DNA of 63,706 nucleotides, counting the filler, from Asterionella formosa (taxonomy: Eukaryota), in NCBI GenBank assembly GCA_002256025.1. It is 28 parts of 28 records of this genome, joined end to end, with 100 filler letters (N's around TTAATTAATTAA, not from the genome) between each part and the next. Parts side by side here need not be neighbours in the genome. Positions count along the whole stretch, not along the records: positions 13,797 to 14,845 come from NKIB01004694.1; 27 more parts are not named here. One strand, written 5' to 3'. Shown one piece after another: positions 4,088-41,987 of this stretch. The notes beneath the pieces are model-generated. The model saw only the letters and a program-made list of their open reading frames with translations. It did no database searches and was not told the DNA's origin. The position numbers and the translations under genes were made by a program. The first letter of the stretch is position 1; every line of letters begins with the position of its first letter.

Positions 4088-4500
4088 TTACATGGCATAT
4101 CTATTTGCATTCCTATTCAAATAGGGCATATACACTGAAGCAATTTGGTTCTGACCAACTTTGCTAGCACGAAAGTTGTAGAGCAATACAATCATTTGGA
4201 GAATTAATTTTCTCTCACCTTTTTCTTCATAACGAAATTTGTATTTGATTCTCGGAAATGATCCCTGAAGGCATCGCATTCCCCATTCCGACAGCTGTCG
4301 GATGGAGGTGGCTTGGCGATTCATACCAAATCTTTGTCGAGGATTACCATTTGCATCAACATTGTTTTGATGTGATTTCAACATTGCATTTGATTTTTTA
4401 GATGCAAATGCTGAATCCACAACTACTTTTTTGCCTGTATCCCTGTAAACTGTTTCAATCTGATCATAGATCGATGACCAAATTGCCATGGTGGAGTCAT
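4088..4500 (-). mobile_element. PIF/Harbinger DDE transposase (DDE_Tnp_4-like), C-terminal half
   Basis: Motifs VVVDSAF, NRQATSIRQLSEWGMRCLQGSFPRI and LLYNFR match the second Asp and the Glu region of Harbinger transposases. Confidence 0.85.
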
Positions 4501-13796: not shown

Positions 13797-14292
13797 ATTA
13801 CAGATATGTAATTGATATTGGGATATCAATGTCGATAAGTGATAATTGACAAATGACTACGTCGTGATAATTTCCGTCGTCGTTCTTGCGATTACAAGGT
13901 TGTTGATGAGGTTTTAATCCTATTGGATAATCCTACTACCTTGGATAACCATGGACGAGATCCTTATTCTATTTATTCAAGTATATGCCAATGGTCCAGT
14001 TACTTTTCAACAAACTATGCATACTACGGACTGAATTAATATCCATTACATCAAACCTTTTCAAAGGTAAAAGGTTTTCCCTTGGTGTGGGAGAGTGAGC
14101 GATCTTGCGCATCAATACAGATGTATATAGGGTTAGTGTTATATCATATATGTATAAGAACTCAATAATGAGAGAACTCGACTAACCCTCATTGTATACT
14201 TTGGTGTCGACTTGGAGAACGAGTTACACACAAGGATTAACAAATAAGCTCATATATTCAACAAATACTACTACTTCTAGTTAGATACTTCA
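13797..14292 (+). mobile_element. Ty3/Gypsy 3' end: degenerate integrase C-terminus, PPT, 197-bp LTR (14096-14292)
   Basis: NFRRRSCDYKVVDEVL...VYANGPV...INIHYIKPF resembles the GPY/F integrase tail; GGTGTGGGAGAG precedes TGAGCG...ACTTCA; LTR recurs at 24649 and 54726. Confidence 0.9.
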
Positions 14293-14945
14293 CCAGGTAC
14301 CCTGTATACCTCAGCCACTGCTTGTACTGGCAGTAATCTACGTATCAGGACCCCAGGAGAGTGCCAGCTACCGATACCTGGTACCTGGTACCAGGTACTC
14401 AGATTCCAAGAGCTACGGACATACTATCTACATAAGAGTGCTGGTACCAGGTACCAGGTACCCGATAGTCAAGCCGTTGACCAGTGTAAATGCTGTGGGA
14501 GTCTAACTGGTACCTGGTACCAGGTACCGTCGATAGACTTTTCCTCACCGTTAAACAACGTTATTGAGCGGAACTCCCTCTCCGCACGAATCAAAAGGAT
14601 CTACATGAATTGTCGCTCAATGTAGAATTGTACACGTTCCCTGTCCTAATCTGTACTCTGGAACATCATGCAGCACCTTCAAGCAAAAAAGGATTTATTC
14701 TTTGCTTCACAGCCAGCGTAAAATCATAAATAGAATTGTGTGCACCTCACATTTTTGTTCATTGACCTCGTCTAAACCATGACAAACAAAGAAACCAATC
14801 GTTCCTATGACCTTGTGGAAGACACGGAAGCCGCCTATGTTGACANNNNNNNNNNNNNNNNNNNNNNNNNNNNNNNNNNNNNNNNNNNNTTAATTAATTA
14901 ANNNNNNNNNNNNNNNNNNNNNNNNNNNNNNNNNNNNNNNNNNNN

Positions 14946-15830
14946 GGCCTTTTATTGGTGGAGAAAGATGGTTTGGAATTTTTGCAACCACAGCAGCACT
15001 GATGTTCAGTCCACAGCAAGCACCGAGATTTTACAAACCTTCCTGATGACCAATTTGATCAATATATGTTCATTCTGAGAATATCGCCATTCGCCATGAC
15101 GGTATTGCTCTCGTGGACATCGAATACTATGCTGGATATAAATTGGCCTTAAATTGGTGGAGAAAGGAGGAGGTTTGGAATTCTTGTTGCCACAGCACTG
15201 ATGATCAGTCCACAAGCATCCGAAAATTTACACATCCGGAGGCCTCCTTTGATCAATATACGTTCGTTCTGAGCATATGAACATTCGACACGACTGCATT
15301 GATTTTGTATACATCAAGTACTATGCTAGATAGAAATCTGCCTTAAATTGGTTGAGAAGGGTTGTTTGGAATTTTTGTTGCTACTGCACTAATGATCAAG
15401 CTACAAGTACCGAAAATTTACACACCATCCTGATGAGCAATTTGATCAATGTATGTTCGTTCTGAGCGAGCATATCGACATTCGAAATATCGGCATTGAT
15501 ATCTCGTATAAATCGAATACTATGCTAGATAGAAATTGACAATGAATTGGTAGAGAAAGATGAATTGGAAGCTTGGTTGTTAAAGCAGCCAGTGGTCCTA
15601 AAATTTACACATCCTGATGCCTCCTTTGGACAATATACGTTCGTTCTGAGCATATCGACATTCGACAAGAAGCCTTTGATTTCGGGTACATCAAATAATA
15701 TATTAGATAGAAATCAGCATCAAATTGGTTGAGAAAGAAACGAATTGGAATTTAGGTTGCTACAGCACTGGTCATCAGTCCACAGCAAGCACCGAAAATT
15801 TACGCATCCTGATGACGAATTTGATCAATA
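14946..15830. repeat. Tandem array, ~190-200-bp unit, ~4.5 diverged copies
   Basis: Recurring AAATTGGT..AGAA, CCGAAAATTTACACATCC, TTTGATCAATATACGTTCGTTCTGAGCATAT and TACTATGCTAGATAGAAAT; units start near 14947, 15146, 15340, 15540 and 15718. Confidence 0.9.
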
Positions 15831-16781
15831 CTGACTAAGCATAGACTGCGCCAGCTATTTCTGAAGTACAATGTACAAAAATTTAGTACAAAATGAATGT
15901 TGGCGAGGAGGACCGTCCGCGCCAGTTTTCTTAACGAAAAGCAGCTGCTGGAATGAAAGGAACAAAATATCACATTCATGGTAAAATGAAATTANNNNNN
16001 NNNNNNNNNNNNNNNNNNNNNNNNNNNNNNNNNNNNNNTTAATTAATTAANNNNNNNNNNNNNNNNNNNNNNNNNNNNNNNNNNNNNNNNNNNNTGGTGG
16101 CCCAGCCATAATTGAGTCTATGCATGTATGATTCGAGAATTGATCAACACATAGCACGTATCATGACCTTGTATGTATGAGTACAAGAACTGTAAACAGA
16201 CATACAACGGTGTTGACTACCAGGGTACCGGTACACTCATACTATATGACTAGCGGGGAATCCGAATTGGGATCTGTTAACAGGTACGGAGTACGAGTAC
16301 CGGTACATAGTTTCCGTGGCTTGTTTGATAAGGAGCCCACGACTGCATTTTCGCTGCACGCACAACTGCTCCCTGCTGCCCGACGGAGGCGAAGATTCGT
16401 TCTTCAAGAATCGCACGTAGTACAGTACCTGGTACCCTGGTACCTGTATTTACAGAAATCGAGGTAGTGCGTATGAATATACCTGTCATATGTACTGGTT
16501 GCCGAGAGACGAGGGGCAGCATCAGTGTTCCAATGCACGACAACCATTAGTGTCCACACACGCATACATTATGTCAGTCAACAAAGGAGGCGACAGATAA
16601 GTAAGTCCAGTTCTCATACTAAATTATGTACTAATGAATATAGCGGTAATCATCATACTTTCACTCAATCACAAATTCCAACAACGAACTGAAGCGAATC
16701 GTCCTTCACGTCTGACCTAATAACAGCAAAGGAGCGATATGCAAGTAAGAGTATTCTCCAAAAGACAGAAAGCAAGCAACG

Positions 16782-17291
16782 ATGACACCCGCTCATCACG
16801 AAGAACTGAACAACAATGGAAGCGATGAAATGGACGTGGCTCTGATGTTCGCAGGACCAATCACAGCTACTTCTTTCAAACTAGACGCCTGGTCCGCTCC
16901 TTCGTGTCTGCCTAAAAATCCTCTACCGATGGAACAGAAACAGTTGGCTAACGCAGAGCGACCAACGTCGTGGTATCATACGTCTGATGATGATGACTCT
17001 CAATCGTGTGATTGGTCTGTGGATTCATCGGAGGACGACCCTATTGTGGAAGATGCGAATCAGAAGGAAAATATCTCCGAAGAGATTCGGTTTGACTTTC
17101 GCTTGAGCCAATCATTGTCTTTTTCGGAAAATGATGAATGTCCCTGCAGAGTCCGGTTTTGTAGCAGTATTCGTATTCGACACTATGAAAAGAGTGATCC
17201 AGAAGATATGGTCCATCTCTATTACTCAGCCCACGAGTTGCAGCGAATGATTGATTCCCACAGAGCTGAAGAGGAGACAGTCAGCAACTGA
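16782..17291 (+). CDS. Hypothetical protein, 169 aa
   Basis: Complete ORF, acidic and low-complexity, with an RVRF (RVxF-like) motif followed by LYYSAHEL; convergent with CRBN. Confidence 0.6.
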   Translation: MTPAHHEELNNNGSDEMDVALMFAGPITATSFKLDAWSAPSCLPKNPLPMEQKQLANAERPTSWYHTSDDDDSQSCDWSVDSSEDDPIVEDANQKENISEEIRFDFRLSQSLSFSENDECPCRVRFCSSIRIRHYEKSDPEDMVHLYYSAHELQRMIDSHRAEEETVSN

Positions 17292-17753
17292 GCTTCAGCC
17301 GGATTTTGTTGCACTTTAAAACCCGTCTAAAGAAGGAATGCCAGTGCCCTTCAAACCTTGCAAAATGCACGCAATGACCGAACCTAATTTTGTGGAAATT
17401 CCTTGCTCAGCTTGGTGCGCACTTGTCCATAAAAGTTCAAAACAAAATGGCTCAATCTTAGCAAACCCATAATCATGCTTGCACTTGATCTAGAGCCAAA
17501 AAATCATTGACACAGAGTGTAACGAACCAGCTGCAGTTATGTATGTCTGTAGTGCTAACTAATTACTAATTTCCTGAAAGGATCAAACAGTATCAACTAC
17601 ATTATGACCTTCAATAGATTGCATTAAACATTTATCTCGGTAGCTTGTTACAAATAAATATTGATTGCAAACTATTTGGGTTGGCCGATACCGAGACCAT
17701 AACAAAAGTTATTCACTTAGCTTTACAGGGACTACCGGTAGTCATAAAAGTCG

Positions 17754-19184
17754 TCAAGGAATAATAACACGCATTGTCACTGATGCTGCACTTAACCCCC
17801 AAAACAGTTCAAGTTGATCCGCAGTCAACAAGTCCTCTCCCATCACTCGTTCAAATTTCCACCCCAAATGCGAGTGACAAAAACGGCAATAGGCAATTGT
17901 CCACGAGTATCCAGGGAACCAACTATCTTTCGTTTCCTTACCACCAGTGTACCATAAATGTTGTTCAGAAACGGCCCGTAATGTGATTGTTTGATGAATC
18001 ACTCCATATTCGTTCACATACGCTCCTGACGTTCCTTCAGAACCAGCGACGGTAAACATATCTGTAGCAGAAGATAACTTGGTACTGCATAGTTTGCACA
18101 AAACATATGTTTGCTGTCGTTCTTGTTCTACCACTTTGTCATAAATATACCGTAGCCTCTCAACAGTGCCACCGGTTTTCAAAATGTATAGCTTGTCATG
18201 TTCTGACAGAGCCATATTGGAGGCCATGTAAAAGGAAAACGCCATTGGCTCGTCAGATGGTGGATTCAGATTCCAAGGCATTCTCAGCAGGACCGACTTG
18301 ATCTGGTCGACCAACCTCCATGGCCACACCATCCGATAGCAAAAGGAAGGAATAGCTGTCATCATAGACAAGGACGCCATAATGCCATCTTGACGCTGTA
18401 GACTGGATGATTGGGAACACATTGGCCTTTGAATGGGTGGTCGCTTTAATTCATCTTCAAATATTTCTTGTATTTGATAGAATTTCAAACCTACCAGGTC
18501 GTCGTCATTGTGGTATCTGCCATCTTGATCTGCAACGCCGCCTACAATACGACATCGTCTCGTTCCCAACGCAGTCACAATAAGTTCGTCATATTCATCC
18601 ACAACTTCTTCGTCACCATGTGTATACGTAACGGTCACAATGGTTCCAACACGTCCCAACAATGGGTCTCGTTCTATGGACGAGTCTCTTCGAATTCCAT
18701 TTTCATTCAATGGAATTGGAGGTTCGTCGTCGTTTACCAACAAACGTTGGTCTATAACATGCAAGCGAGATGCCCTCCTCGTCCAGCTTGATCGTTGACG
18801 ATGCGACTGGACACGAGTTGGAATGTGTGTGAAAATTCCAATTCGCACCTCCTTCCCCACCTCTATTAGTTGGCGAACATACTGGGCCCATTGTCGATGG
18901 ACCAGTCGTAATGGCAGCGTGTTTCCTGGAAAGACCACAACTCCTGGGAGTTGGAGGACAGGGAGCGTTGTTGTTGTATGATCAGTGACGACCCATCGAT
19001 GCAATAAAATGTCTTGTGAAACAAAAAGTGAATGAGAAGCGCCAGGTAAGTAGGAATGATGCGAATAATTGGGACTGGAGTGTTGGTGTTGTGGTAAGGC
19101 GCTGGTACCACCATCGTCTAGATTCATCATGACTTCGTCGTGTTGATCCTCGCCTTCTATCTCTCCTTGATGATTTGTCAGCAT
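17754..19184 (-). CDS. CRBN: Cereblon homologue (LON-N domain plus CULT domain)
   Basis: LPVLQLPGVVVFPGNTLPL (LON-N); CKLC...AYVNEYGVIHQTITL...SWFPGYSWTIAYCRFCHSHLGWKF (two zinc CxxC pairs and the tri-Trp pocket). Intronless, 476 aa. Confidence 0.93.
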   Translation of the reverse strand: MLTNHQGEIEGEDQHDEVMMNLDDGGTSALPQHQHSSPNYSHHSYLPGASHSLFVSQDILLHRWVVTDHTTTTLPVLQLPGVVVFPGNTLPLRLVHRQWAQYVRQLIEVGKEVRIGIFTHIPTRVQSHRQRSSWTRRASRLHVIDQRLLVNDDEPPIPLNENGIRRDSSIERDPLLGRVGTIVTVTYTHGDEEVVDEYDELIVTALGTRRCRIVGGVADQDGRYHNDDDLVGLKFYQIQEIFEDELKRPPIQRPMCSQSSSLQRQDGIMASLSMMTAIPSFCYRMVWPWRLVDQIKSVLLRMPWNLNPPSDEPMAFSFYMASNMALSEHDKLYILKTGGTVERLRYIYDKVVEQERQQTYVLCKLCSTKLSSATDMFTVAGSEGTSGAYVNEYGVIHQTITLRAVSEQHLWYTGGKETKDSWFPGYSWTIAYCRFCHSHLGWKFERVMGEDLLTADQLELFWGLSAASVTMRVIIP

Positions 19185-20508
19185 GATGGGAGTCTACTGA
19201 GACTCAGTGCTATATAAGTTGAGGTGGGTCTGTTGTCATCATGGAGCACAGCGAGAATTCTTGCTTTTGTTTCAGATGATACCTAGTACTGATGACCACC
19301 AGGTACCGTATGAGAGTTCGTTCAAAACGACAACACATAGAAGTACGCACCAGGTATACCAGGTCCCAGGTACAAGACGATCACATCATGAGCACGTATG
19401 GAACACGGTGCCGTGTTTGAAGGTGCGTATGAAGTACCGGTACCAGGTCCTCCACCTGATACCTGTACTAAATGTGTCCCCGGCAACGTACCTTACCACT
19501 GGTACGGACTCTGATTTGTGACGTAACAAAACATCAATTTCTATGAGACGCATGGTACATACTACGTTGTATTTGAGTACCGGTTCAGTTGTGTTCACGA
19601 CTGACGTGATAATTACCAGGTATACAAATACAACAGCATACTACATGAATAATTTAGTTTTAAGGTCCTTCGCATTCCTCCTACCGGTACACATGTTGTC
19701 TTCGCCTTCAAATATATACTGGCATTCCAAGATATACTTTTGTTTAGCACGTACTGGCATGTCCATCAAAAGACTTGCATCTTTTTTTAGTGCACTGCAA
19801 TTTCTTTCCAACATCAATGAATATAGAGTCCACAACAACATCTTCAAGGCAAATCATTGACATCACATGGAGCACTTGTCATGTTGGATCATGGAATTGT
19901 GATGCCAGGGCAATAACTCCTTCGAATTCCTAACTTCATGTAGAAAGTATTCTATGTAAACATTGTCCCTCTTACATTTTCTGACAGTCCAACAATCTAC
20001 CAACACGATGGACAGTTTAGAGGACAATGAGAAATTTTGCTTTGAAGATCCCTAGAATTACTCTATTTTAGTATACTGATGATCAAACCAAATATTGCTC
20101 TTCAAACAGCATCAATCCAATTTCATTGCTGACAATAGTTGGCTCATTCACCATGATGCCAACCATGATTAAAACAGAGGGATAAAACTCTTGCAAAGGA
20201 AGTCAACTAAAAAGGAAAAGTGGATGATCTAAAATAATCAATTCTTTAAATAAGCTACATGACATTACAGCAGGGGACATCGAAGGATAGCTAATTCCGC
20301 CAGAAACAACAAGCACAGTTCTCCATATGCATGTCTGACTTGATGATGTGTCAGTCGCACATGATATGTGGAACGTCTCAGGTTCACGTAGTTCTTGTAC
20401 CAAGGTAGAACAACTACGTCTTGAAAATAAAATAAGGTAGTCTAATTGAAGGATTGCAGTAAAAGACGGTTTTTCTAGAAGGAAGAAATTGCTAAATCTC
20501 GTCTCATT

Positions 20509-20892
20509 TTAGTACCTCAAATTCCTCTGGGCAGGTGTTGGAGCAGCTGTTGGCCAAGGAGTTGAGACCGGCCAAGGATTTGGAGCAACTCTTGGCCAAG
20601 GATTTGGAATCGGCCAAGGATTTGGAGCAGGGGTTGGAGGAGGATCAACTGGAACCAAAGCCGCTGTTACCTTAAATGGAGCGTTGCATTCAAAGAATCC
20701 ACTTGAAGCGTTGCAGACGCATGTCTTGATAGCAGATACGCCGTGTCTGATCACCTGGTAGTTACATTCGAGACCAGGTACCGCACAGGTGATTGTTTTG
20801 GTCCTTTTGATGCGTTTACCAGGGCAGATCGGATCATTAGCGAAAGCACCGCTTGTAAAAAGGCAGATCCCTACGGCGATAAAAATCTTCAT
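20509..20892 (-). CDS. Small secreted protein with a 6-Cys domain and PNPWP repeats
   Basis: Signal peptide MKIFIAVGICLFTSGAFA (ATG 20892), Cys-rich domain, then PNPWP x3, TPWP and C-terminal RNLRY. Confidence 0.7.
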   Translation of the reverse strand: MKIFIAVGICLFTSGAFANDPICPGKRIKRTKTITCAVPGLECNYQVIRHGVSAIKTCVCNASSGFFECNAPFKVTAALVPVDPPPTPAPNPWPIPNPWPRVAPNPWPVSTPWPTAAPTPAQRNLRY

Positions 20893-22829
20893 CTTGTCGT
20901 TGTGGCAGATCACAAAATTGTCGACCTTTCGAACTTTTGTTCACTCTTTTATGTGATAGAAACATGAGACGACGACCTTGTACCAAAAAAAGCGAAACTC
21001 GCCAGATCTTTTCATTTTTGTCCAGTACATATATATATAGATTTAATGTTGAATATGACCATTGTAACCAAGATCGAGCACATCACGTATCCATTAAGCA
21101 TACCTAAATCACCACGATTTGGGATAATTAGGAAGCAATGGTACGAGTCAACGATATAACGTTTCATAGCAAGTATAAATACCGGTAGACTCAGTAATAT
21201 GACAAATACTAGTGCATGAATTTCTATTTTTACCATTGCCGGCGTCATAACATGGTTCTCTCAGCATTTGTATCTATGTTATAATGCTCGATGGAGAAAT
21301 TTCTTGCTTATATGCGTCAGACTAACAATGCTTTCAAAATTGCCCTTTACTAAAGCCTTTCTGAGCCTACTCGGATATCGGTACCAATAAAAATCCAACA
21401 GTTTGACTAGGAACATGTGTTATGCCATTTACTATAGCCCTTTTCATCAGAAAAAATTCTACAACTGGCTGCCGATAGGAGATAAGCCTTTCACCATACA
21501 CCCGCAAATAAAGGGCCTTTTTAGCTCCTTGCTTGCGTAAAATATTGTGAGAGCCTCGCGTACCGGTACGAATGCTGGAGCTCGTGACGGATGGAAATTT
21601 TGCCCCGGTAAGTCGTCTAATGGCATGTCCTGTGTGCCAATGGTTATTTAAGAAATATTTTCCTTTTCTTTTCAATATAGTCGAATATTTTAACTTCTCA
21701 CGACCCCCCTCTTTCCAAGGCGGAACCGCCGAAGTTGGTGGTACCTGGTACCATCATGGCAACTTGCATGCTGGTTTGTAGCAACAAATTGATAGGTCCA
21801 TAATGCTTGCTTTTGCCAATGATTACAAATAATACAGCTACTGTTGTGAATCAAGGAGCAGTAGATGCATTGATTATCACCACAAATTCTATATTTGTAA
21901 ATTCATTTTCTATGAATATATAGAGTGAGCGCATTGTTTGTCTTCCTAACAAATGGTGACATCAGTAGATTTTTGGATATGGCTGGACACCTCATAGGAC
22001 AGCAGGCAAATTGGCTTCCATGTGTGTCTACCTGCACCTAACAGCCTCCTTCCTATACAGCAATCCCAAATCGCTCCAGTCTCTGAGCGAACATGGTGAT
22101 GTTGAATCAAAGAGGATACACACCAGACTCCATTGCTGAGATTTTTTCCTCATCACTCTTTCTGTATGTCTTCATGCTGCACGAAATCGCAAATTGTGCC
22201 TAGTACTTCAGTAGGTTTATGAAAGATGACAGATCATAAGAGCAAGGACATTCCAGCAATGACATTTGACAATCAACAGTTAAGGTGTCAAGGATTGTGA
22301 CAACTCTGACACCAGCTGCAATGGTGGGCTTACCATCTCCTCCACCACAATCATTGCCTTTCTGACTAGCAAGCCTCCACAAAAGCTCTATCCTCCAAAT
22401 ATATATTATGTAGTATCCAAATGTCTGCAAATAGAAAACATCGTATTTGTGTTATGCATTGTATAATGACAAGCATATGATCATATAATTTCAATTTATC
22501 ACATAATATGCATGAATAATGATTATCATCATAGAGAATATGTAAGTATAAAATATAGATACATGTATTTATGTGATGCTTACCATCACACTACAACAAT
22601 CAGCAATTGCTCAATCAATTGACATTCATTACAAGCCTGTAATCGAAGTCCAAGGGCATGACAAGGTAAGCCAACATGTACTGATGAGCTTGAATAGAAA
22701 AAGGTTGTTCCTCTGATAGACATGATCTAACGCTTCCTCTTGCCCCCTTCCCTTCTCCTTCAGTGACAGGTATCGATCACTCAGTATGCCCCTTTAGCAC
22801 AGGCAGCATATATATATGCATATTTGCCT

Positions 22830-23095
22830 CTCTGCAAGCAATTTCTTCATGAGACACTTCGATGTAAACATGATGACCTCAAGGCCACTAACTCCCAGCT
22901 TGACCCATTCCTTTGCTCTCTTTCAAGATGTCAGTAAACATTGACATGATGTGTCTCAAACTTGAATCAAGGTTGACGATTTCATGTGCATCTTGCCGTC
23001 GAGTTAAATTGGTATCATCTTAAGGTAAGGTTTTGACATCAATCAACCCTCTTCTCCACAAGACTTGCATCAACCCCTTCGCCTTGCCTTCCTTG
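22830..23095 (-). pseudogene. Degenerate Tc1/IS630-like DDE transposase fragment
   Basis: Manual translation KEGKAKGLMQVLWRRGLID...SLRHIM resembles the GKxKGxxQVLxERG motif; contains stops and frameshifts. Confidence 0.5.
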
Positions 23096-23527
23096 AATTA
23101 TATATTCCTTGTCTTGTGGTTTCAATTTCATACCAGGAAAAAATTTCCGAAGCTCACATTTGTTTTTACCTTTTGACCTATGGTACAGTATGTACCACGC
23201 TAGATATACTATATCATTAGATGGTACAAGTCCTATATAACGTTAACCTTATAGGCTCTCCTATACAGACCATATACTTGTTTACTCTCACTGTAGAGAT
23301 TTACACAGTACAAACTGTGTATGTATACCACGTTAACCATAAGTGAAAGGTGTACCCTTTTACATTACGCACACGACTACCATGGAACCCATACGTAGTA
23401 CATACACATGGACTCGAGAGTGATCATGATTAGTACGTGATGCTATACACACGATTACGGTACTAGTTTGTAGCTCGTAGTACATATTGCATTATGTACC
23501 CGCAGCTATTTGTTACGTGATAACTAT

Positions 23528-24118
23528 CGGTACAGATGTATCTCTAGAATAGATGTACCAATGCTAGGCTAAAACATGACACCTAGCATGGACTCTTGAC
23601 GCCCAGTACATACCCTTCTCATCAAGACCCTTGTGAGTCTTCTTGGACTAGGAGCTAATATAGATACATTAATCATTAAGCTCATAATTACCCAGAACCT
23701 ACTTATTAAATCCCGACAACCATAGGTTTGGTGTTGGCACCTCTTAAGCAAGGTCAGTGTTTTTTATTTCACTACTAGAGACATCATGTTGGCATGAATG
23801 TCGCGCACCAGGAGTCATTGGTACAGATATATCTCTAGAATAGATGTACCAATGCTAGGCTAAAATATGACACCTAGCATGATGGACTCTTGACACCTAG
23901 TACATAGCCTTCTCATCAAGACCCTTGTGAGTCCCCTTGGACTAGGAGCTAATATGGATACTCTAATCATTAAGCTCATAATTACCCAGAACCTACTTGG
24001 TAAATCCTGACAACCGTAGGGCACCTTTGGTGTTAGCACCTCTTAAACAAGGTCAGTGTGTTTTTATTTCACTACTAGAGACATCATGTCAGCATGAATG
24101 TCGCGCACCAGGAGTCAT
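23528..24118. repeat. Two tandem ~295-bp copies, possibly inside an LTR-like unit (TGTTACG 23511 ... TTCAACA 24140)
   Basis: 23528-23818 and 23819-24118 align throughout. The LTR interpretation is weak because no TSD was found. Confidence 0.8.
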
Positions 24119-24648
24119 CCGGAATGGACCAACTTCAACAGGCTAGATTAGAAGATGTTATATTGTTCCCAGCCACTTAAAGTTGTGGTTCATAGATTCC
24201 TAGAAATCAAGGTCCTTGTTCAAGAATGATGGTTGAGTGGATAATGGAATTCTTGTCACCACAGCTTCTATTCATTAATATTGAATTGAATCCATCAGGT
24301 TGACGCTTTGAATTCCCTGTTCACTTATCGAATAGGTAAGCAGACTTATAAGTTGGATGCATATTTAGAACATCAGTTTTTTCTTCGAATTGACACATCA
24401 TATGATTGTTGTAGTTCCAGTATCTCGAAAACGTCAGCATAAAATGCCTTCTTCTAGTACCATGAGATTGCCTTGTTAGTACCACTTACTATAATTAAAT
24501 CCAGTTTTCTTCACAACTAATTAAAGTAGCCTTGTGACTCAATGCATTCATATGTGCAGTCGTAGGCAGGTAATGTATAGAGTATTCTTTTTTACTTTGT
24601 ACTACATACTGTATATTGTTTATGTCGTTGGTGACGATAGGTACCAGG

Positions 24649-27600
24649 TGAAGTATCTAACTAGAAGTAGTACTAGTATTTGTTGAATGTATGAGCTTAT
24701 TTGTTAATCCTTGTGTGTAACTCGTTCTCTAAGTCGACACCAAAGTATACAATATAAGGGTTAGTCGAGTTCTCTCATTATGGAGTTCTGATATATATGA
24801 TATAACACGAACCGTATATACATCTGTATTGATGTGCAAGATCGCTCACTCTCCCACACCAAGGGAAAACCTTTTACCTTTGAAAAGGTTTGATGTAATG
24901 AATGTTAATTCGTTCCGTACTATGCATGGTTTGTTGAAAAGTAACCGTACCATTGGTATATATGGTTGAATAATAGAATAAGGACCTCATCCATGGTCAT
25001 CCAAGGTATTAATAGAATCCAATAGGATTAAAATCTCACCAACTGTGTAATCGCAAGAACGACGACGGAAATTATCACGACGTAGACATTTGTCAATCAT
25101 CACTTGTCGACCTTGATATCCCAATATCAATTGCATATCTGTAATCAAAGGAATATTTAATATCATATCATGTTGGAAAACCCAGCCATATTCCTGGTGA
25201 AATAAACAATGTACTGGGGGGGGGGGGGATTAAATACGCAATTTCCTATAAATAGTAGCTCGAGCTGCATACATGTTGGAAAACCCAGCCATATTACTGG
25301 TGAAATACGCAATGTACTATAAATAGTAGCTCGAGCTGCATATGATGCATCTGCAAAACATGTATCCACGATATTCTGAGCTTGAAGTTCCTTGATTGGA
25401 GGATGAGCCTTTAACATAACTCGTAGACTATTACTGATAGATTGATGTAAACGTTCACGGATAGCAGTTGTTGATGGATTCTTGACTGCAACAATCCCAA
25501 TTTTAATTCCATTCAAAGCTAACATGTGTATGAAAGGAATACCAGTAAATTGACCTCCATTGTAATGTATACAACCTTTTGGACGGAGATATCTGTCTAA
25601 ACAATCCTTTTCAAATTTCACCGCAACATATTCTGATGTCTTATTATTGATTTGTGAAATTTCTGGTAAATTGGTGACTGTGATAACTCAAGTTGGAGCA
25701 CGAAATTCAATCGCTTGTGCAGCCACTGTTATCTTCCATGGAACAATGAAATCCATTGTGATTTCTGATCATTGTAGAAACAATGCATTCCTTGGTGGAA
25801 GTTCACCAAAAACCAGCACCAGGTAATTTTGTACGTTTTGACATGTTTCATATATGCTTGCTATATGTTTCACTCTTGCCTTAAAAAGTATTTCATCTTG
25901 TCATACCCACATGAGCTAATATCTGATGATACCAATTAATAATAGGATCCAATGATAGTAATGTTGGAATAACAATACGTCAAGTATCTCCTGGATTCTT
26001 CACAAAGCATATTAAATGTATATCATGAAAATTGATAAAGGGAAATTTTAACGGATGTGTTTGTTGATTGAGAATGAGATGTTTGGTTAGATTGAGAATC
26101 AATTGTATATCCAGCAATTGTCTATCATGTATTGAATTATAATCCAGAGGATATTGAATATTGTCTGCCAAGATTGGATGATTGAGGAGACAGGCAAACA
26201 GAGGTACATGTCATCTAATTCAATTGAGAAAATAGAAGTGGATGTTGATGCTGAAGGTTCGGCCCAACTAAATCAATTGATAAAGTAGAAGTGGATTTTG
26301 ATGCTGACGATTTCGGCCCAATATCATCCCCCACCAAAGACTCAAGCCTCGGGAGGCGAGAGATAGAATCTGTAATATTTGACCTTATCAGTACCTCTTC
26401 ATATCGTGAAAAGTAAGAAGATATTCTTCAGTATAAAGCCTCCACCGGAGAACACGTTGATTTTCTGTGTAGGGCAATGTAGATTAAAAAAAGATCAGTG
26501 TGAACATGTAGAACCGCATTCAATAAAATAGAGCGAAATTCTTTGAAAGTTTCTTAATTGAAAATCAGAAACATTAGTAAAAAATATGGAAAGGAAAATT
26601 ACGATCAGGATAGCTCATGAGTGTATCTGCAACTAACAATGCTTTCATTGATTCAAAAGCTTGTTGATGTATGCATAGGTAACCATACAAATGGACCAGT
26701 TCCATGTAAATACTTTTTTAATTTTGAAGACCAAAATTTGAAGTCGGTTGGAGTTTATCGATATCCCAATAAGCCAGTTTCTTCATTAGGCCATTTCATT
26801 CGGAATTGCACTGGATGACTTGTGGTTAAATACATTTATTTCAGCCATAACAGCAGCTTTCCGTATCTGTATAGTTAGCAGCTTTAATACTCCATGTGTG
26901 AATATAATCCTCGATAGATGTATCAAAATAGAATAATCCATCATGTAAATGTTCTGTATCATTGTAGAAATCAATGACATGCAGAAAAACACTGATATAT
27001 CCACCACATAGGACATATTATTTTGTACAAAATCCATCATAAATTATCCAGCTGGACAAAATGAGCAAACTCGCAGAATTTACTAAGACCAGGTACTTTT
27101 GTTGCAGGATACAAGCTGACGGATTAAATTTTGGGAGCATCATGCATGTTTTATGAAAGAGTACTGGCAAAGGAAGAAAAGATGGGATCATACCTGCTAT
27201 GCATGGTATATATTAATTATAAATGTTCGATTTACAACGAAATGTCCTTAAGTGAAATCCTTTCATAAGTTAAAGATCAGGACCCACCGCGATCAAGTAA
27301 TATTCATCTTATGTCATGTATATACAACGCAGCCACCAATCCTTGGGTCGTTAATGACATAGGAATGAAATGCAATTTAGCTTAGTATGCATTCTTAGGG
27401 AAAGAAAGAATGAGACCGGAATCAGGCCTTGAGATGTGCATATGGAATGATATATTGAATCTACATTTGCATTTTAAAATATCCTGCGTTACAATAGCGG
27501 TGATATCCAACCTGTAATTATCCTGCAAATAACCAAAGTTATTCAGGTAATGATTGATGTAAGACATATTCAATGTGCTGTCGCTCATAAATATATATAT

Positions 27601-27963
27601 ATGTATGTATATTATTAAAATCAAAGCATTGTTGCTATTGTCGTACAAACTTCTGTTAAGGCGATCTGTTCAGCATTCTGCTGGTTTTTCAGGCACATCG
27701 GCCACTAACTGACCGACAGGATTCATGACCACTAAAATTTCCTGGGCAGATTCATGAAAGTTGGCAGGTATGGCCCTTGGCACAGTACCCTAAACAGACA
27801 TCATCATAGGGTTAACCCATGGATTTGCTTGTATAAAACATGCACAGAAGAAAAGCATGAATAGGGTTAGCTGTGTTAGTATGATAATTTGCTCCGCATA
27901 GAATTTCTACACCAGAGGAACATGAACAGGAAAAGGGTTAGTAGTGTTAGTAATGTTAACTCA
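24649..27963 (-). mobile_element. Degenerate Ty3/Gypsy element (RT-RNase H-integrase, 3' LTR 24649-24848), interrupted at 27964 by a Copia
   Basis: Remnants EETGLLGY, QAFESMKALL, ETFKEFRSIL, QRVLRWRLYTEEY, RYLRPKGCIHYNGGQF and KNP...ERLHQ in Gypsy order; PPT plus LTR; 27880-27960 matches the gag-side remnant at 47895-47990. Confidence 0.85.
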
Positions 27964-30900
27964 TGTCAAGAATATTAGCCCGAGTCACATGGATTGTGGA
28001 TTCGCTTGTAATCAAACGAGTCGAATAATGCATTGCCACGTCAATCAGCTGTCTAACGAGATCAAAGATTGAAGATTTCTATGGAAATGTTAAGTGGAAA
28101 ATCGAGGAGAGTCTTTGAACGGCTTTGCAGGAAGCAAAGATGCATGGAAAGGAAACATTTAGTTTAGCTTATAATTTAATTTGAGTTTTAGATTATCAAC
28201 CGAGGAAACAGTGTGTTAATTGACAGGAAGGTCAATAAGTCTATCTAGCAGGAAGGCTGGAAGCAGGGACAAGAAGAGAGAAAGTAAGAGGTACTAGGTA
28301 GTACTACGATCACGTAAGAGTCTACGTGAAGAGAGACCCAGCTCGCAGGAAGGAGTACGGACCATTTCAACACGCTTTAAAGCGGATAGGTTTGAAAGGG
28401 TACTCAAGATGGGAATTGACGACGAATCGTCAGGAGTGCGGTTGCCAACATTTGATGGTAACGATGCCAAGTGGCACATTTGGAAAGCGAAGTTTGTGGC
28501 CTATGCCTGCTACAAAGGTTTTGAAGGAATCCTAAATTGAGATGAAGTATCACCAGGTGAGAGAGATTCAGCTGGAGTGAAGATTGTTCCGAGCGACAAC
28601 GATGAGAAGCGTGCGAAACGAAATAATACGGTTGCATATGCAAGTTTGATTATGGCATGTCAGAGTGGACCATTTGGATACGTAAATGCTGCCAGAAGTG
28701 AAGAGTTCCCCAATGGAAATGCGAAGGAAGCGTGGGACAAGTTAGTTTCTACGTGCGAGTCAAGTAATATGGCAAATGTGATTGCCTTGTCAGGTCAGTG
28801 GACAAAATGCACGATTAACGAGAATGAGAACCCCGACATTTGGTTTGTGGAGTTGGATAGAATTCGAGAACGATTGAGCCGTACGAGCTCCGCAATTTCG
28901 GATGGTGCCTATGTGGCTCACGTTGTCAACAACCTACCGGAAGTCTACAAGAGTTTGGTGGTTGGAAAATTTGGTCTCGCGAGCTCCGAGCTCACGATCC
29001 AAGAGGTCAAGAAGAATGTACGCGACTACCGGTATTATTACAATTTGTATGTGCGTGACAAAACCAAGACAAGTAAGAATAGCGAGCAGGCCTAGCGAGC
29101 AGGCCTTCTTTTCAAAAAGCAAGTTTAATGGAGACTGCAGGAAGTGTGGCAAGTATGGCCACAAGGCAGTTGATTGCCGAAGCAAGGGCAATACTACAGA
29201 AAAGAGAGAATTAACTCCCGAGCAACGGAATAAGAGAAAGAATGCGAAGTGTTATAATTGCCAGAAGATGGGGCACTATGCCAGTGAGTTCAACAATCAA
29301 CAAAATGTACCAATCAAACAGAAGGGAGAAGACGCCAACACCACTACGCAAGGAATGTTCGTGGTGACGTGTATTGAGGCAAGGTACAACGAAGAGGTAA
29401 ATCATACGTGCATGCATAAGGACCATTGGCTACTAGATAGTGGTGCTACGGTACATATATGCAATGATGAGCGCATCATGGAGGACAAGCGCGCAGTGCA
29501 TGAAACTGTTCTTGTGGGAAATGGCGCAGCAATTGTTGCGACCGTATCAGGCACGGTGACCCTTACGACGACAGACAAAGGAAAAGTGTTGAAACTCACC
29601 AATGTGCTCTATGCACCGGAGTTCACGCAGAGCATCATCAGCATTTCGAGAATTATTGACAAGGGAATCAAAGTTATGTTTGACGATGATAAGATGACAA
29701 TCAGAAACAACAACGGATTTTTGATCTGCAAACGTGATGAAACGAGGACAATTGGTGCAATGTACCATGTGCAAGGAACGCCTATTCTAAAGGAAATGGT
29801 GTTGGAGGTTGAACAAGAAAGCGAGAAGCCAACACAACAATCTATCGACTATGATAAAGAAGACAAGAATGAATGGACGAAAGTCGACGAAAAGAAGTAA
29901 ACGACGAAAGCGAAAGATGAAACGATCAAGAAAAGAAACGCGAACGAATATAATGATGTGATTGTGGAAATAAATGAAGCGCACGAAATGCTTGGACATG
30001 TGGGGGAAAAATGTCTTCGTGAGACATCGAAATTATTTGGGTGGAAACTTGTTGGAAATTTAAAGGTGTGCGCAGGATGCACAGCAGCCAAGGCGAAAGC
30101 ACGCGCAGTACCCAAGATGACGCAAGAGAAGGCTACGACACCAGGAGAAAGACTGTCTATTGATATTAGCGGACCCTACTCAAAATCCGCTGTGGGAAAT
30201 CAGTATTGGGTGATGGCCGTGGACGATTATACAAGGAAACGCTGGAGTTATTTTATCAAGAAGAAAAGTGACATCAGAACTGTCATTGGAGCGTTACTCA
30301 CAAAACTTGCCGGTGCAGGACATAAGACTAAATTTTTCCGATGTGATGATGCAGGTGAGAACTCCAAGCCACTAAAGAAAGTATGTGAAAACCAAGGTGT
30401 CAAGATGGAATTTACGGCACCTCATACTCCGCAGCACAATGGTGTTGTGGAGCGTGGTTTTGTTACAGTGCGTCAGAGAGCACTTGGTATGATGCTAAGT
30501 GCGAAGTTTACAGATGAATATCAGGGGCTATTGTGGGCAGAAGCTGTACATACTGCGACAAGATTGACAAACAGTACAGTGAATTCAGTGACTTAGAAGA
30601 GTCCTGATGATGTGTTCTATGGAGAAACGAATACAAGGCGGCCCTACAAGCTCTACAGGCAATTTGGACGTGTTGGTTGGGTTACTATAAGAGAAGGTGT
30701 CAAGAAATTAGATGCACGTTCCATCAAGTGTGTCTTTTTGGGATACTCAGATGACCACTCTCAAGATACGTATTGCATGTATAATCACGAGACAAATACA
30801 TAAAACCAGTCATCAAGCAACCAACAGGATACGGAGATATCAGTACGAGAAGATAATGAAGAATTGCATGACGATTTTTATGACAAGTTCGAACCTCGAG

Positions 30901-32968
30901 AAGTGTCCGATAATGAAGATGAAGATGATGACAAGCAAGAATTGGGGAGGAAAACTGAACAATCAACTAAGATAGATGGTACTACGAAATACGAAGATAC
31001 AGGTACCAATACCCCAATTGTGAAGGCTAAACGTGCGGAAAGTGCTCAGTCTAAGCAAGCGAAGTTGGCACGTGAAATGCGAAGATTGGACTCATCGTTC
31101 AATCCTACGAGTACGAAAATTGTGAAATTTTCAGGAGATACTGAGATGCCTGGTGTTATCAAGGAGGATGACATGAAGGAAGTTACAAAGAATACACAGA
31201 TGAATCTTGTGTACAACGCAAGTCTGGCTTCTGATCTAGGATTGCCAACAAGCTACAATGAAGCAATGGCAAGACCAGACAAGAAAGAGTGGATCAAGGC
31301 GATCAACAAAGAATATGAAAACTTCCAGTCGAGAGGAGTGTGGAAAGTTGTCAAGCGTGACACTGTTAAAAAGCGAACACTAAAAACGAGATGGGTGTTT
31401 CGAATTAAAGAAGATGTGGTAACCGGGAAGAAAATTTACAAGGCAAGATTGGTCGTGAAGGGATATGAGCAAATCCCAGGTATTGATTTTACTGAGACAT
31501 TTGCTCCAGTCGCAAGCGATGCGACAATCAAAACGGTAGTAGCAGTGACGATGTATAACGGTTGGCGAGCAGAGGCTATAGATGTGGAAGCAGCATTTCT
31601 AAATGCTGATGTCGATGAGAACATTTAAATTGAGCCCCCTCAAGCTTTGATCAGAGTCGATTCCGATACACATGTTTGCAAACTTGTGAAGGCTACGTAA
31701 GGGATAGTACAAGCTCCACAATGCTGGTCCAGGACGTTTGCGAAATGTGTCACCAATAAACCAGGTATGACAAAGAGCAAGATCGACCCTATGTTATTTA
31801 TGCACCGAAACAAGGATGGACAAATTGATGGTCTACTTGTTAATTACGTGGTTGACGGTATTGTATGTGGGACTCCAAGTGCAGTGGAGTATATGAAAAA
31901 TGTTATCAAGGAAGATTTCAATATTACCAAGCAGGGTATTGTACAGAAACACCTAGGAGTGGAATATGCTTGGAAAGAGGACAAGTATGGTGAATACTGG
32001 GAGGTGCAGATGCAGAAATTTCGTATGCAACTTCTACACGAATACGAGAAGCTGACCGGTATGAAAATTCAGTCATACACAACGCCGGGCGTACCAGGAA
32101 AGACATTGAACAAAAATGACGAAAAAGTCATTATGGAAGGAGAATATCGAAAAATTGTGGGCAAGTTATTATGGTCTACAAAGAAGGATTCGCCGGACTG
32201 TGCAAATGCGGTTCGGGAATTATCGGCTCATTTAAGCTGCCCAGGTATTTAAGCTGCCCAGGTGAAGAACAATGGCATACAGTGGCAAGAGTCATTGGTT
32301 ACCTATCCAATATGGAGGATAGAGTTCTCAAGTTACGTAAGCCAAAAGAGTTAAGAGTCATTGCCTACATGGACAGTGACTCGGCTGCTAATAAGGTTAA
32401 CAGGAAGAGCGCGACTGGCTATCTTGTAACTATTGGCGGGGCACTTATCAGTTGGCAGTCGAAGGGACAACAAACGGTTACGCTGTCCAGCACGGAAGCC
32501 GAGTATGTGGCGATGTCCCAGTGTGGACAAGAGATCAAGTTCATAGCAATGCTACTGAATGAGGTTACTGGTGGTAAGGTCATGTTACCAAGTATCCTAC
32601 GAGAAGACAATACAGGAGCTATTTTTATCGCGAAGAATCAGCAAATCGGAACCAGGACAAAACACATTGATAATAAGTATCATCATGTAAAGGACATGAT
32701 TGAGGATGAAGAATTGAGGTCGGAAGATAATTTTGCGGACATTATGACCAAGAACGTGAAGGAACAGATTCATACGAGATTGTCCGAACCAGTTCAGAGT
32801 GGAACGATGTTACAGCCTCTTGAGCGTGGCAATGGGGAGGATGTCAAGAATATTAGCCCGAGTCACAAGGATTGTGGACTCGATTGTAATCGAACGAGTC
32901 GAATATTGTATTGCCACGTCAATCAGCTGTCTAACGAGATCAGAGATTGAAGATTTCTATGGAAATGT
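27964..32968 (+). mobile_element. Near full-length, inactivated Ty1/copia retrotransposon (gag-PR-IN-RT-RH)
   Basis: 5' LTR from 27964 (end inferred at 28372); gag ATG 28409 (PTFDGNDAKWHIWKAKF); CCHC knuckles; WLLDSGAT; HEMLGH..CAGC; integrase DISGP/RCDDAGE/NGVVER; RT KARLVVKG; RNase H; PPT GGGGAGGA; 3' LTR from 32842 to contig end. Several stops and frameshifts. Confidence 0.96.
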
Positions 32969-33068
32969 NNNNNNNNNNNNNNNNNNNNNNNNNNNNNNNN
33001 NNNNNNNNNNNNTTAATTAATTAANNNNNNNNNNNNNNNNNNNNNNNNNNNNNNNNNNNNNNNNNNNN

Positions 33069-33630
33069 TGGCGCGCGGAAAAGGCCAAAAGGAAAGGCAC
33101 ACATCATGTGCCACCGATGCCAAAAGAAGGGGCACTACGCTACGGAATGCGAGGAGCCTGCACCTGTCCCTAGGAATTTGACCACCAGTACTCCTTCCAC
33201 AGCTGAAACGACATCAACCCAGTCCGCCACCACACTACTAATGGATGGTGTGCATGAGGGAGAATTCAAGGAAAATGTACACTTCCAATTTCTAAATCAA
33301 GGAGGAGTGAGTCTGAAAATTGGGCCCGATGGAAGGCTACCACATACATGTATACTATTAGACAATCAGTCAACAGTTGATGTGTTCCAAAACGCGGAAC
33401 TCCTACGCAACATCCGTGTACACACCAGTAAGATGGATATCCACTGCAACGCTGGTATAATCAGCACCCAACTCATAGGAGACCTTCATGGATATGGAAC
33501 AGTATGGTACAACCCAAAGGGAATCGCGAACATCCTGTCCCTCGCACATGTCAAGGAGCATGGATACAGGGTAACATTTGATAGCAGCCAGGGCAATGCA
33601 TTCCATGTTCACAAACCTGACGGAACCTAT
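33069..33630 (+). mobile_element. CoDi-like copia gag knuckle plus protease fragment
   Basis: CHRCQKKGHYATEC, ILLDNQSTVDVF, VWYNPKGIANILSL; cut at 33630 by a LINE fragment. Confidence 0.85.
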
Positions 33631-34084
33631 ATTCCAGATCTAAATTTATTCACGACATAGGACATGTAAATTTCCTGGCATTTACGCATAGACCATATCT
33701 CTTCCCATGCTTTGCTCCTTGATGAGTGATTTTGTGGGCACCTGACAACATGATTGAAGTCCTCGTTGAAACGAGCACACCTTGGACACTGGCCATCATT
33801 GTGTTTCTAATACTTCCTCCGTTGTTTCATTGTTGCAAACAAATCGAATTCCAGTTTGAAAAGCATCATCGGTTGCGAAATGCCAGTTATCCGTGCTCCT
33901 GCTCAATGTCTTGCCAGCCAATCCACCATTTCGAAGATTCTCTTGGTATCCCATCCATTCCAAGCGCATATATGTTGTTCTAAAGATCCCTGATAACTAG
34001 CTTCTCGTATTTGCATTGACACGTGTCCTGTGATCCACTGACCTTGAACAAACAAAGTTGCTCTGTGTCTTGGAGGTAGAATAT
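33631..34084 (-). repeat. 454-bp near-identical copy of LINE segment 37423-37876
   Basis: Direct alignment at offset 3792 with a few substitutions. Confidence 0.9.
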
Positions 34085-36926: not shown

Positions 36927-37876
36927 CTAATCCTGGATTATTGGCCTGGATAGACGTTTTAACTTTCTTAATCCATAGTAGTTTTTGAGGTATGGTATGA
37001 TATGATTTGCGATTCTGACAAGGAAGTTGAAAGAGAAACTTGTCAGACAATGAGACTCTGTCCGCCTGGGAATACAGCTGTGTGATGATTCGATCAGCAT
37101 ATCGATCTGTTTGTCGTCTGTGACACCATAGAGGAACTGATTGCGTGATGTCCATTGCCCAATTCCAAAGTTCCAAAGTTTATTAATGAGCTTGCTAGTA
37201 GTCCATTGGTCATCGATAGTTGGGTTAGAATAGAGAAATCTTTCTTTACAATAAGACGCATTGGCCTTCCCCCATTTGACGCTAATACGGCCCCGTATTG
37301 CCTGGTCCCAACCTATGTCTTGTTGATCTATAAAGACCTCAAAGGTTGTATACCCTATGGTGTCGCTTGGAGGTGGAATATCACCCTCCCACCAAACTAT
37401 CCCTTCTGTGACCCACTTCTCAATTCCAGATCTAAATTTATTCACGACATAGGACATGTAAATTTCCCGGCATTTACGCATAGACCATATCTCTTTCCAT
37501 GCTTTGCTCCTTGATGAGTGATTTTGTGGGCACCTGACAACATGATTGAAGTCCTCGTTGAAACAAGTACACCTTGGACACCGGCCATCATTGTGTTTCT
37601 TATACTTCCTCCGTTGTTTCATTGTTGCAAACAAATCGAATTCCAGTTTGAAAAGCGTCATCGGTTGCGAAATGCCAGTTGTCCGTGCTCCTGCTCAATG
37701 TCTTGCCAGCCAATCCACCATTTCGAAGATTCTCTTGGTATCCCATCCATTCCAAGCGCATATATGTTGTTCTAAAGATCCCTGATAACTAGCTTCTCGT
37801 ATTTGCATTGACACGTGTCCTGTGATCCACTGACCTTGAACAAACAAAGTTGCTCTGTGTCTTGGAGGTAGAATAT
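36927..37876 (-). mobile_element. 5'-truncated non-LTR (LINE) ORF2 C-terminus
   Basis: WNGWD...VDW, then CPRC...EDFNHVVRC (CCHC, zf-RVT-like), QQDIGWDQAIRGRISVKW and WTSRNQFLYG; one internal stop. Confidence 0.75.
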
Positions 37877-38504: not shown

Positions 38505-38700
38505 GCTTAGATTGGAATAAATGATATTGGTAATTTGGGAGGAGGTTGTATAGATTATGTGGTAACGAATTCAATTCAAATGAAGAAGGGATGAGACAGG
38601 CAAAGAAGAACAAGAGTTTGGTTTTGGTTGTAACAAGATGATGATAACAGCGAAATTACAAACATTCATGATCACTGCCTGTGTAAACGGTGCTACTTAT

Positions 38701-41619: not shown

Positions 41620-41987
41620 TAATAAGATTGGGCCTGTATCACGGAGTTTGGGTTCACCCTTGTCTCAATTGGTTCATCCTCATTTACCAAATGAGGCAAA
41701 CTACATCCTCAGCAATAGAAATAGCTGGTCTTGGTGAACTTCATGTCATGCATCTTTGACATTAAACATCAGGTGTATGTGTTCACACAAGAGCTCAATT
41801 GGAATCCATTTCAGCTGGTAGGAACTTTCTGCGGAAATAATTTTAAAAAGCTCAAATTAACTGAGATTACGTGCCCTCATGGATCCATTGACTCATTCTT
41901 TAAATCCAGACGGTTGAGATGCTCAAACTGGAGTTGGATCTGCGAGACCACAATAAGGTACAAAGAAAAGCGATGGTCAGTTGCTTG

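Follow-up and report, generated by a model that had tools for sequence, protein, structure and literature searches.

A family of long terminal repeat (LTR) retrotransposons found in a 63,706-base stretch of DNA from the diatom Asterionella formosa (hereafter, the window) meets host DNA in one register of the palindrome GGTA|CCWGG|TACC. This target preference is very probably real, and it is strong but not absolute. Taken as a whole, the data are best explained, in our judgment with somewhat better than even chances, by a high-copy diatom Ty3/Gypsy lineage that integrates preferentially at GGTA|CCWGG|TACC and whose integrase complex reads the site. The original prediction, made from the window sequence, had described the element as apparently site-specific. 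The use of a single register, far above chance, at both LTR ends and in independent data sets, upholds this description, whereas strictness does not stand, since one metagenome locus (L005) matches the motif at only 5/9 positions.

Junctions of the LTR family with host DNA

The window was assembled from 28 contigs chained by N44-TTAATTAATTAA-N44 linkers (e.g., 1051-1150, 15995-16094, and 32969-33068); 26 of the contigs are 1047-1050 bp long and two are about 16.9 kb (16095-32968 and 33069-49936), and the GC content of the window is 40.7%. Since separate contigs were chained by linkers, adjoining pieces of the window are not neighbors in the genome; each LTR–host junction described here lies inside a single contig, and none lies across a linker. 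A BLAST search using copy 1 revealed exactly three LTR copies in the window, which are 197-200 bp long, have TG...CA ends, and read TGAGCG...ACTTCA. Copy 1 (14096-14292, plus strand, 197 bp, TG...CA) is followed by the host half-site CCAGGTACC (14293-14301), which would consist of the duplicated CCAGG and TACC. Copy 2 (24649-24848, minus strand, 200 bp, 92.6% like copy 1) adjoins the host half-site GGTACCAGG (24640-24648), which reads CCTGGTACC in element orientation, and copy 3 (54726-54922, minus strand, 197 bp, 99.0% like copy 1) again adjoins CCAGGTACC (54923-54931), which reads GGTACCTGG before the LTR in element orientation.

Re-reading of the sequence placed the three junctions where they had first been reported, at ...ACTTCA(14292)|CCAGGTACC, GGTACCAGG|TGAAGT(24649), and ...CGCTCA(54922)|CCAGGTACC, with CCAGG, CCTGG, and CCTGG as the adjacent pentamers in element orientation. 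Copies 1 and 2 are 3′ LTRs because each comes after the purine tract GGTGTGGGAGAG and a remnant of the integrase C-terminal coding sequence, and copy 3 is a 5′ LTR because its inner side reads CTTTGAATTCAAAAAGAGTCC, a sequence also present 3′ of the LTR in 15/20 of the metagenome loci described below; the proposed set of two 3′ LTRs and one 5′ LTR was thus borne out. The flanks showed no similarity beyond the nonamer, in line with the earlier statement that the wider flanks are unrelated and at least two of the insertions independent. Within the window, the background frequency of the oriented nonamer is 4.2e-4 per position, with 51 sites when both strands and the three junctions are counted; at this background, the chance of finding it at 3/3 junctions is about 7e-11.

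The 1049-bp contig carrying copy 1 (13797-14845) was contained in sequencing runs amounting to 20 rows from 13 studies, whose labels are algae, freshwater or lake-water metagenome, or two coded organism names. Scanning of metagenome contigs with the exact last 19 bases of the LTR yielded 20 loci. One of them (L004) is a chance match with the same sequence as a bacterial metagenome-assembled genome contig (L021), which was the only match, and a chance one, when the genome_contigs collection was scanned with the LTR end; the viral_contigs collection scanned with the LTR end gave zero matches. Only internal LTR edges were obtained from 12/20 loci: eight run from the polypurine tract (PPT) through the LTR to the primer-binding site (PBS) (L001, L002, L006, L008, L010, L011, L013, and L015), one shows PPT|LTR with the contig end one letter past the LTR (L007), and three show LTR|PBS, the start of the LTR lying beyond the end of the contig (L009, L014, and L019). 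The other 7/20 gave a host junction, arranged as host|LTR|PBS in four (L005, L012, L016, and L017) and as LTR-end|host in three (L003, L018, and L020), and all seven start with CC-W-x-G-T.

Ten explicit junctions, three from the window and seven from the metagenome loci, were then read outward and compared with CCWGGTACC. All nine bases matched at the three window copies, L016, and L018; L012, L017, and L020 matched at 8/9, L003 at 7/9, and L005 at 5/9. In all, 8/10 of the explicit junctions matched at least 8/9 bases, and the numbers of junctions agreeing with successive positions of CCWGGTACC were 10, 10, 10, 7, 10, 10, 9, 7, and 8. At the background given above, the probability of at least five exact matches among 10 is about 3e-15. 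Past the first 9-25 bases the flanks are unrelated among the junctions, indicating that the insertions are independent. Both L012 and L017 sit at 8/9 sites although the similarity of their LTRs to copy 1 is only 76% and 85%, respectively; diverged subfamilies thus have the preference in common.

Logan contigs aligned to 13797-14845 provided another view of the junctions (28,955 contigs in X1, 1,078 in X2, 54 in X4, and 10 in X12). Contig ends were taken from the best six rows per run, with 424 further rows beyond those listed, and the flank parts of 13797-14845 uncovered in X12 were given no weight. Among the X1 contig ends listed, 95 contigs run from the LTR into the PBS side. Another 40 carry unmatched letters 5′ of the LTR, whose consensus ...ACCAGGTACCTG, together with the matched G of 14095, gives GGTACCTGG|TGAGCG, and 56 match LTR|CCAGGTACC through 14301 and then diverge with the consensus AGGTACCAGGTACC.... 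X12 contained one 5′ junction contig, in which 178 unmatched letters lead up to ...GTACCAGGTACCAGGGTACCTG(+G)|LTR (also written ...GGTACCTG+G|TGAGCG), and one 3′ contig that matches through 14301, with one mismatch in 38 aligned letters, and continues as TGGTACCCGAATACCGG....

The recurrence of the nonamer might mean that it belongs to the element, as part of a longer LTR or terminal repeat, or to a larger duplicated host repeat. The recurrence itself, and nothing more, favors this explanation, to which we assign almost no probability. At internal edges, both the window and 12 metagenome loci have PPT|TGAGCG and ACTTCA|CTTTGAATTC and never the nonamer, which is missing at all three such edges in the window; both LTRs of an element must be identical after reverse transcription. 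A larger host repeat is contradicted by the unrelated flanks beyond 9-25 bases. It is also very improbable that insertion is random and that copies survive, or are assembled, only in harmless array DNA. The arrays in which the target word occurs (see below) are indeed non-coding and only assembled contigs are seen, but selection works at the level of regions and is unable to set a base-exact register at both LTR ends. In addition, young copies are already in register (LTRs 97.5-99.5% like copy 1; L016, with a young LTR, at a 9/9 site), and the same pattern is seen in assemblies and in runs of several studies. Together, the exact register and the internal edges exclude, for practical purposes, both selection alone and the nonamer as part of the element.

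Several points weigh against targeted integration as proposed here. With a young copy (L005, LTR 97.5% like copy 1) at a site matching 5/9 and L003 at one matching 7/9, the specificity is not absolute. Some X1 contigs carry TACC, CTA, or TAAAGTACCTT between the array and the LTR start; non-canonical junctions thus exist. The X1 counts are numbers of contigs, not of loci, among the ends listed (six rows per run), the 3′ junctions L003, L018, and L020 have only 21-56 terminal bases in common with the LTR, and the metagenome loci were picked by an exact 19-mer. Finally, neither the window nor the metagenome loci contained both flanks of one full element or of a solo LTR.

The target word, its arrays, and recognition of the site

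The 13-mer GGTACCWGGTACC occurs 14 times in the window versus 0.00 expected from shuffles, and GGTACC occurs 61 times versus about 9 expected. The target sites form short arrays with a period of 7, (GGTACCW)n, of which three lie as unused target sites in the host flank of copy 1 (14375-14398, 14443-14462, and 14507-14528); a GGTACC array is also present in the host flank of copy 3 (55029-55047). Single-unit sites without a neighboring unit were used as well (24640-24648 and L016). At 14516, seven letters corresponding to one (GGTACCW) unit are missing in the sole X12 contig covering this array, and the length of the arrays thus varies between populations, as it does in microsatellites. Among the 7-mers of the window, over-representation is highest for TACCGGT/ACCGGTA (62 versus 4.4 expected), followed by rotations of ACCWGGT and GTACCAG (5-6 fold), and the palindromes TACCGGTA and TACCWGGTA (e.g., at 269, 1674, 2808, 16226, and 45714) top the over-represented words. 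The arrays thus belong to a palindrome family, TACC(W)GGTA.

TACC(W)GGTA sites are depleted in open reading frames (ORFs) of at least 150 aa (4/53 versus 14.1 expected, p = 9e-4). Several sites are located 100-500 bp upstream of the ATG of a cereblon-like gene, and two are located 150-175 bp upstream of the ATG of a HECT gene. The original prediction had taken the gene-upstream arrays to be footprints of another transposon; their upstream position held for these two genes, but the footprints gained no support, as no element with terminal inverted repeats and heptamer duplications was found in the window. A search for heptamer direct repeats around inverted termini returned only an array-to-array match, which is a weak test in a window this small. 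The arrays look more like a cis-regulatory word or a microsatellite than like transposon footprints. In Phytophthora infestans, an oomycete and thus a stramenopile, TACCGGTA has been reported with high confidence as promoter motif M94 (PMC3597505); by analogy, this correspondence may serve as a lead, not a test. The data also flag an unexplained host feature, as TACCGGTA and TACCWGGTA, the top over-represented words of this genome sample, lie upstream of genes.

In the mechanism that we propose, the site would be one pair of units of the short (GGTACCW)n arrays that abound in the non-coding DNA upstream of genes. An integrase complex with two-fold symmetry would read both half-sites, with GGTA/TACC outside and CC/GG inside, and would carry out two strand transfers that flank the central W of GGTA|CCWGG|TACC at a spacing of 5 bp. 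The element would then end up between GGTACCWGG and CCWGGTACC, with CCWGG presumably duplicated. Direct recognition by the integrase is favored because the register is base-exact, because the cuts are symmetric about the dyad and do not lie to one side of the palindrome, and because single units are used too. It is supported by analogy with ZAM, whose integrase has been shown to bind and nick a palindromic target, and is consistent with the domains of the related metagenome protein P0121, which has an integrase with H2C2, rve, and a GPY/F end and no added domain. Overall, the chance that the integrase alone reads the site may be put at even or marginally better.

Alternatively, a dimeric DNA-binding protein of the host could sit on the TACC(W)GGTA palindromes of promoters and recruit or position an integrase with little preference of its own. 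Such tethering has precedents, as Sap1 directs Tf1 and TFIIIB directs Ty3, and tethered elements can give near base-exact patterns, as with Tf1/Sap1. A protein of this kind would fit the features of the motif family described above: it is the most over-represented in the window (TACCGGT, and ACCWGGT and GTACCAG to a lesser degree), it is depleted in ORFs, it lies upstream of the cereblon-like and HECT ATGs, and it includes the M94 promoter motif. However, the cuts fall at the dyad center of the motif, a position that a bound protein would be expected to cover, pushing the insertion aside. Known tethered elements insert beside the factor and have variable duplicated sequences, whereas here the duplicated bases themselves are conserved along with the flanking ones. 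In addition, single units without a neighbor are used (24640-24648 and L016), and no candidate factor is known. We therefore regard tethering as rather unlikely, though to be taken seriously.

Recognition could also reside in the DNA itself, if the nested palindromes (GGTACC, CCWGG, and the 13-mer) were bent or cruciform-like and attracted any integrase. The weak palindromic preferences of LTR elements have been ascribed to integrase multimers and DNA bending (PMC6911290, PMC5408687), which is in accordance with such a property. These general effects are weak, however, the palindrome length being only 0.1-0.3 bases above that of shuffled sequences in most plant families tested (PMC6911290), whereas 8/10 of the explicit junctions here match at least 8/9 bases. 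A purely structure-driven preference is thus improbable.

The duplication itself was approached through the junctions of different elements, since 5′ junctions end in CCWGG and 3′ junctions start with CCWGG. A 5-bp stagger is usual for the Ty3/Gypsy superfamily, and this stagger, together with the mirror-image arrangement of the junctions, leads us to infer a 5-bp CCWGG duplication, with no element showing both flanks. No allelic contig was found for the three host flanks by BLAST in the window and the metagenome loci. X2 record 21 and X4 record 31 have matches starting exactly at 14292, with 17 unmatched letters before the match in X4 record 31; these starts fit an unoccupied allele ...GGTA|CCAGGTACC beside the insertion but are only a hint. 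The unoccupied allele at 14292/14293 is predicted to read GGTACCAGGTACC. The doubled pentamer CCWGGCCWGG, which is expected from precise element loss, occurs 0 times in the window, a weak test given the small size of the window. The earlier suggestion that the arrays are a "renewable" landing site does not follow, because an insertion splits the 13-mer that it uses.

Identity of the element and other features of the window

On the evidence of its sequence, the LTR family is a Ty3/Gypsy element, in agreement with the original prediction. This assignment is based on the pol order, reverse transcriptase (RT)/RNase H–integrase–3′ LTR, and on RVT_1-type relatives, and is accompanied by integrase domains, TG...CA LTRs, and a PPT; paired LTRs of one element were never seen together. 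On the minus strand of the window, tblastn placed the RT/RNase H end at 26669-25896 and the integrase at 25960-24877, followed by the 3′ LTR. The ORF at 25166-25687 (minus strand) is 68% identical to P0121, a metagenome protein of 489 residues laid out as an RNase H tail, an H2C2 zinc finger, a DDE core, a GPY/F-type C-terminus, and a stop. The only Pfam domains of P0121 at E<=0.1 were Integrase_H2C2, zf-H2C2, rve, and rve_3; at this threshold, inspection of its GPY/F end revealed neither a chromodomain, which would mark a chromovirus, nor any other added domain. Longer pol relatives, with at most 56% identity, carry RVT_1, RT_RNaseH_2, and Integrase_H2C2 (PF00078, PF17919/PF17917, and PF17921), and two diatoms, Nitzschia inconspicua and Amphora coffeaeformis, are the sources of the nearest named pol relatives.

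What is present of the coding sequence of copies 1 and 2 is degenerate, with frameshifts and stops. In copy 1, tblastn detected a degenerate 3′ pol end encoding the integrase C-terminal GPY/F region (13797-14083, plus strand), whose 5′ side is cut by the contig start; residues 402-489 of P0121 align to 13797-14067 in two frames, indicating a frameshift, and stops are present in the three-frame translation. The PPT GGTGTGGGAGAG lies directly 5′ of the 3′ LTR (14084-14095, plus strand). The same tract adjoins the LTR of copy 2, as the reverse complement (24849-24860, minus strand), and the same or a variant tract was found in 9/20 metagenome loci. The degenerate pol of copy 2, located by tblastn of P0121 and P0125, extends from the RT/RNase H end to the integrase (24877-26669, minus strand) and stops 28 bp before the PPT. 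By-eye comparison with the L005 sequence downstream of the PBS revealed a remnant of the 5′ leader/gag start at 27660-27770 (minus strand); lacking a PBS and a 5′ LTR, copy 2 is 5′-truncated near 27770 and internally deleted.

In copy 3, the PBS-side leader, CTTTGAATTCAAAAAGAGTCC..., occupies 54629-54725 (minus strand) and is cut by the contig start. No TGG, the tRNA-type PBS start, is present in CTTTGAATTCAAAAAGAGTCC, the sequence 3′ of the 5′ LTR, and no complement of at least 7 bases to CTTTGAATTCAAAAAGAGTCC was found in the LTR; thus, self-priming like that of Tf1 is not evident. The CTTTGAATTCAAAAAGAGTCC sequence (54705-54725, minus strand, and loci L001-L019) contains a 12-base palindrome. 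In X1, the summed word depth is 2.8-5.4 million for the LTR versus 1.7-5.3 thousand for the unique flank; although depth is not copy number, this contrast suggests that the family is very abundant, with a very high copy number. The eight metagenome contigs running from PPT to PBS follow the order pol end, PPT, LTR, PBS, and leader, closed on one LTR, and may reflect assembly collapse, tandem elements, or one-LTR circles.

Beyond the Gypsy copies, the window carries eukaryotic genes and elements: a cereblon-like LON/Yippee protein, a HECT ligase, cytochrome c, TYW1, a piece of a PIF/Harbinger transposase, and a Copia element. The Copia-type element (28541-32950, plus strand) encodes gag, zinc knuckles, a Pol beta-barrel, integrase, and RVT_2, with stops between its ORFs; it adjoins the truncated Gypsy copy 2 and extends to the contig end, without a definable LTR edge there. 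Relatives of the TYW1 piece (60367-61410, minus strand) include metagenome sequences at 99% and 90% identity; those with a name, at 74-78% identity, come without exception from diatoms (Synedra, Fistulifera, Cylindrotheca, Nitzschia, and Mayamaea), which marks the source of the window as a diatom. The PIF/Harbinger-type DDE transposase fragment is located at 4091-4498 (minus strand; DDE_Tnp_4, E = 2.6e-6). Tandem repeats occupy 14994-15830 (period 194, 4.3 copies), 38703-39734 (period 188, 5.5 copies), and 47094-47547 (period 203, 2.3 copies).

Comparison with known systems

The background on LTR integrases given in the original prediction had left out the sequence-specific Gypsy elements of Drosophila. 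The gypsy, ZAM, and Idefix groups target the palindromes TATA, CGCG (ZAM/Tirant), and ATAT (Idefix/17.6/297) (PMC5408687), the ZAM target is 5′-CGCGCg-3′, and the ZAM integrase binds and nicks its target directly (PMC2527525). Sequence-specific integration has been called "the exclusive property of errantiviruses" (PMC5408687). The diatom element resembles errantiviruses in belonging to the Ty3/Gypsy superfamily and in having a palindromic target that would contain the duplication. Conversely, errantiviruses have targets of 4-6 bp and a 4-bp duplication, whereas the diatom element has nine bases per side (13 in total) and probably a 5-bp duplication; instead of the 4-bp palindromic duplication of the fly elements (CGCG, TATA, or ATAT), its junctions show the pentamer CCWGG with conserved GGTA/TACC outside. 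The hosts also differ, insects versus a diatom in which the target takes the form of heptamer micro-arrays. Errantiviruses have a third ORF (env) or env-bearing ancestry, whereas the diatom element is known from incomplete copies, with no env gene known.

Tf1 of Schizosaccharomyces pombe and Ty3 of Saccharomyces cerevisiae make a 5-bp duplication, and their insertions lie in front of genes or at the start sites of transcription (PMC5408687). The diatom element is like them in superfamily, in its probable 5-bp duplication, and in gene-upstream insertion that avoids coding sequence, but in Tf1 and Ty3 insertion depends on host-factor tethering and the duplicated sequence is not conserved, unlike the conserved junction sequence found here. 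Tos17 has a weak consensus, ANGTT-TSD-AACNT (TSD, target-site duplication), and the palindromic biases of retroviruses and plant LTR elements are likewise weak (PMC6911290, PMC5408687). These share with the diatom element, whose duplication is putative, a symmetric consensus around a 5-bp duplication, which has been ascribed to integrase multimers (PMC6911290), but theirs is a statistical bias over thousands of sites, whereas half of the explicit junctions of the diatom element match 9/9. The GyDi elements are comparable in being diatom Ty3/Gypsy elements, the comparison resting on diatom origin and diatom relatives; the available portion of Maumus et al. (2009) describes heterogeneous target duplications and reports no target preference (PMC2806351).

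Repeated insertion at one multicopy sequence that serves as a harmless landing site is also known from target-specific non-LTR retrotransposons and Dada DNA transposons. Microsatellite-specific non-LTR families exist as well. These belong to element classes other than the diatom Gypsy and use an endonuclease with target-primed reverse transcription or a DDE transposase. Strict target specificity was previously seen only among non-LTR retrotransposons, according to the Dada paper (PMC3706591). Our searches of the diatom literature on transposons and target preference found no report of such targeting, target preference goes unmentioned in a 2025 preprint on the transposons of diatoms, and exact-string literature searches for the 13-mer and for 11-mers returned only irrelevant primer-type matches.

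More tentatively, and by analogy, the integrase itself might read the 13-bp GGTACCWGGTACC, which would then surpass every known target of an LTR retroelement in length and stringency and would be the first to be found beyond the insect errantiviruses; the lineage would have retained this trait while the LTRs of the subfamilies diverged to 76-85%, and promoter-proximal arrays of the host would act as landing pads that place LTR promoters beside genes. We consider this fuller account possible, with somewhat less than an even chance. If true, a diatom Gypsy element with nine constrained bases per side would break two generalizations, namely that sequence-specific integration is restricted to errantiviruses (PMC5408687) and strict target specificity to non-LTR retrotransposons (PMC3706591). 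It would also offer a second, independent system in which to study how integrase complexes recognize DNA sequence and, possibly, a natural vector or tool for site-directed integration in diatoms. Together, these comparisons present the diatom element as a Ty3/Gypsy retrotransposon with a form of sequence-specific targeting that differs from that of the fly elements in the length of the site, the probable 5-bp duplication, the host, and the use of arrays as the target.

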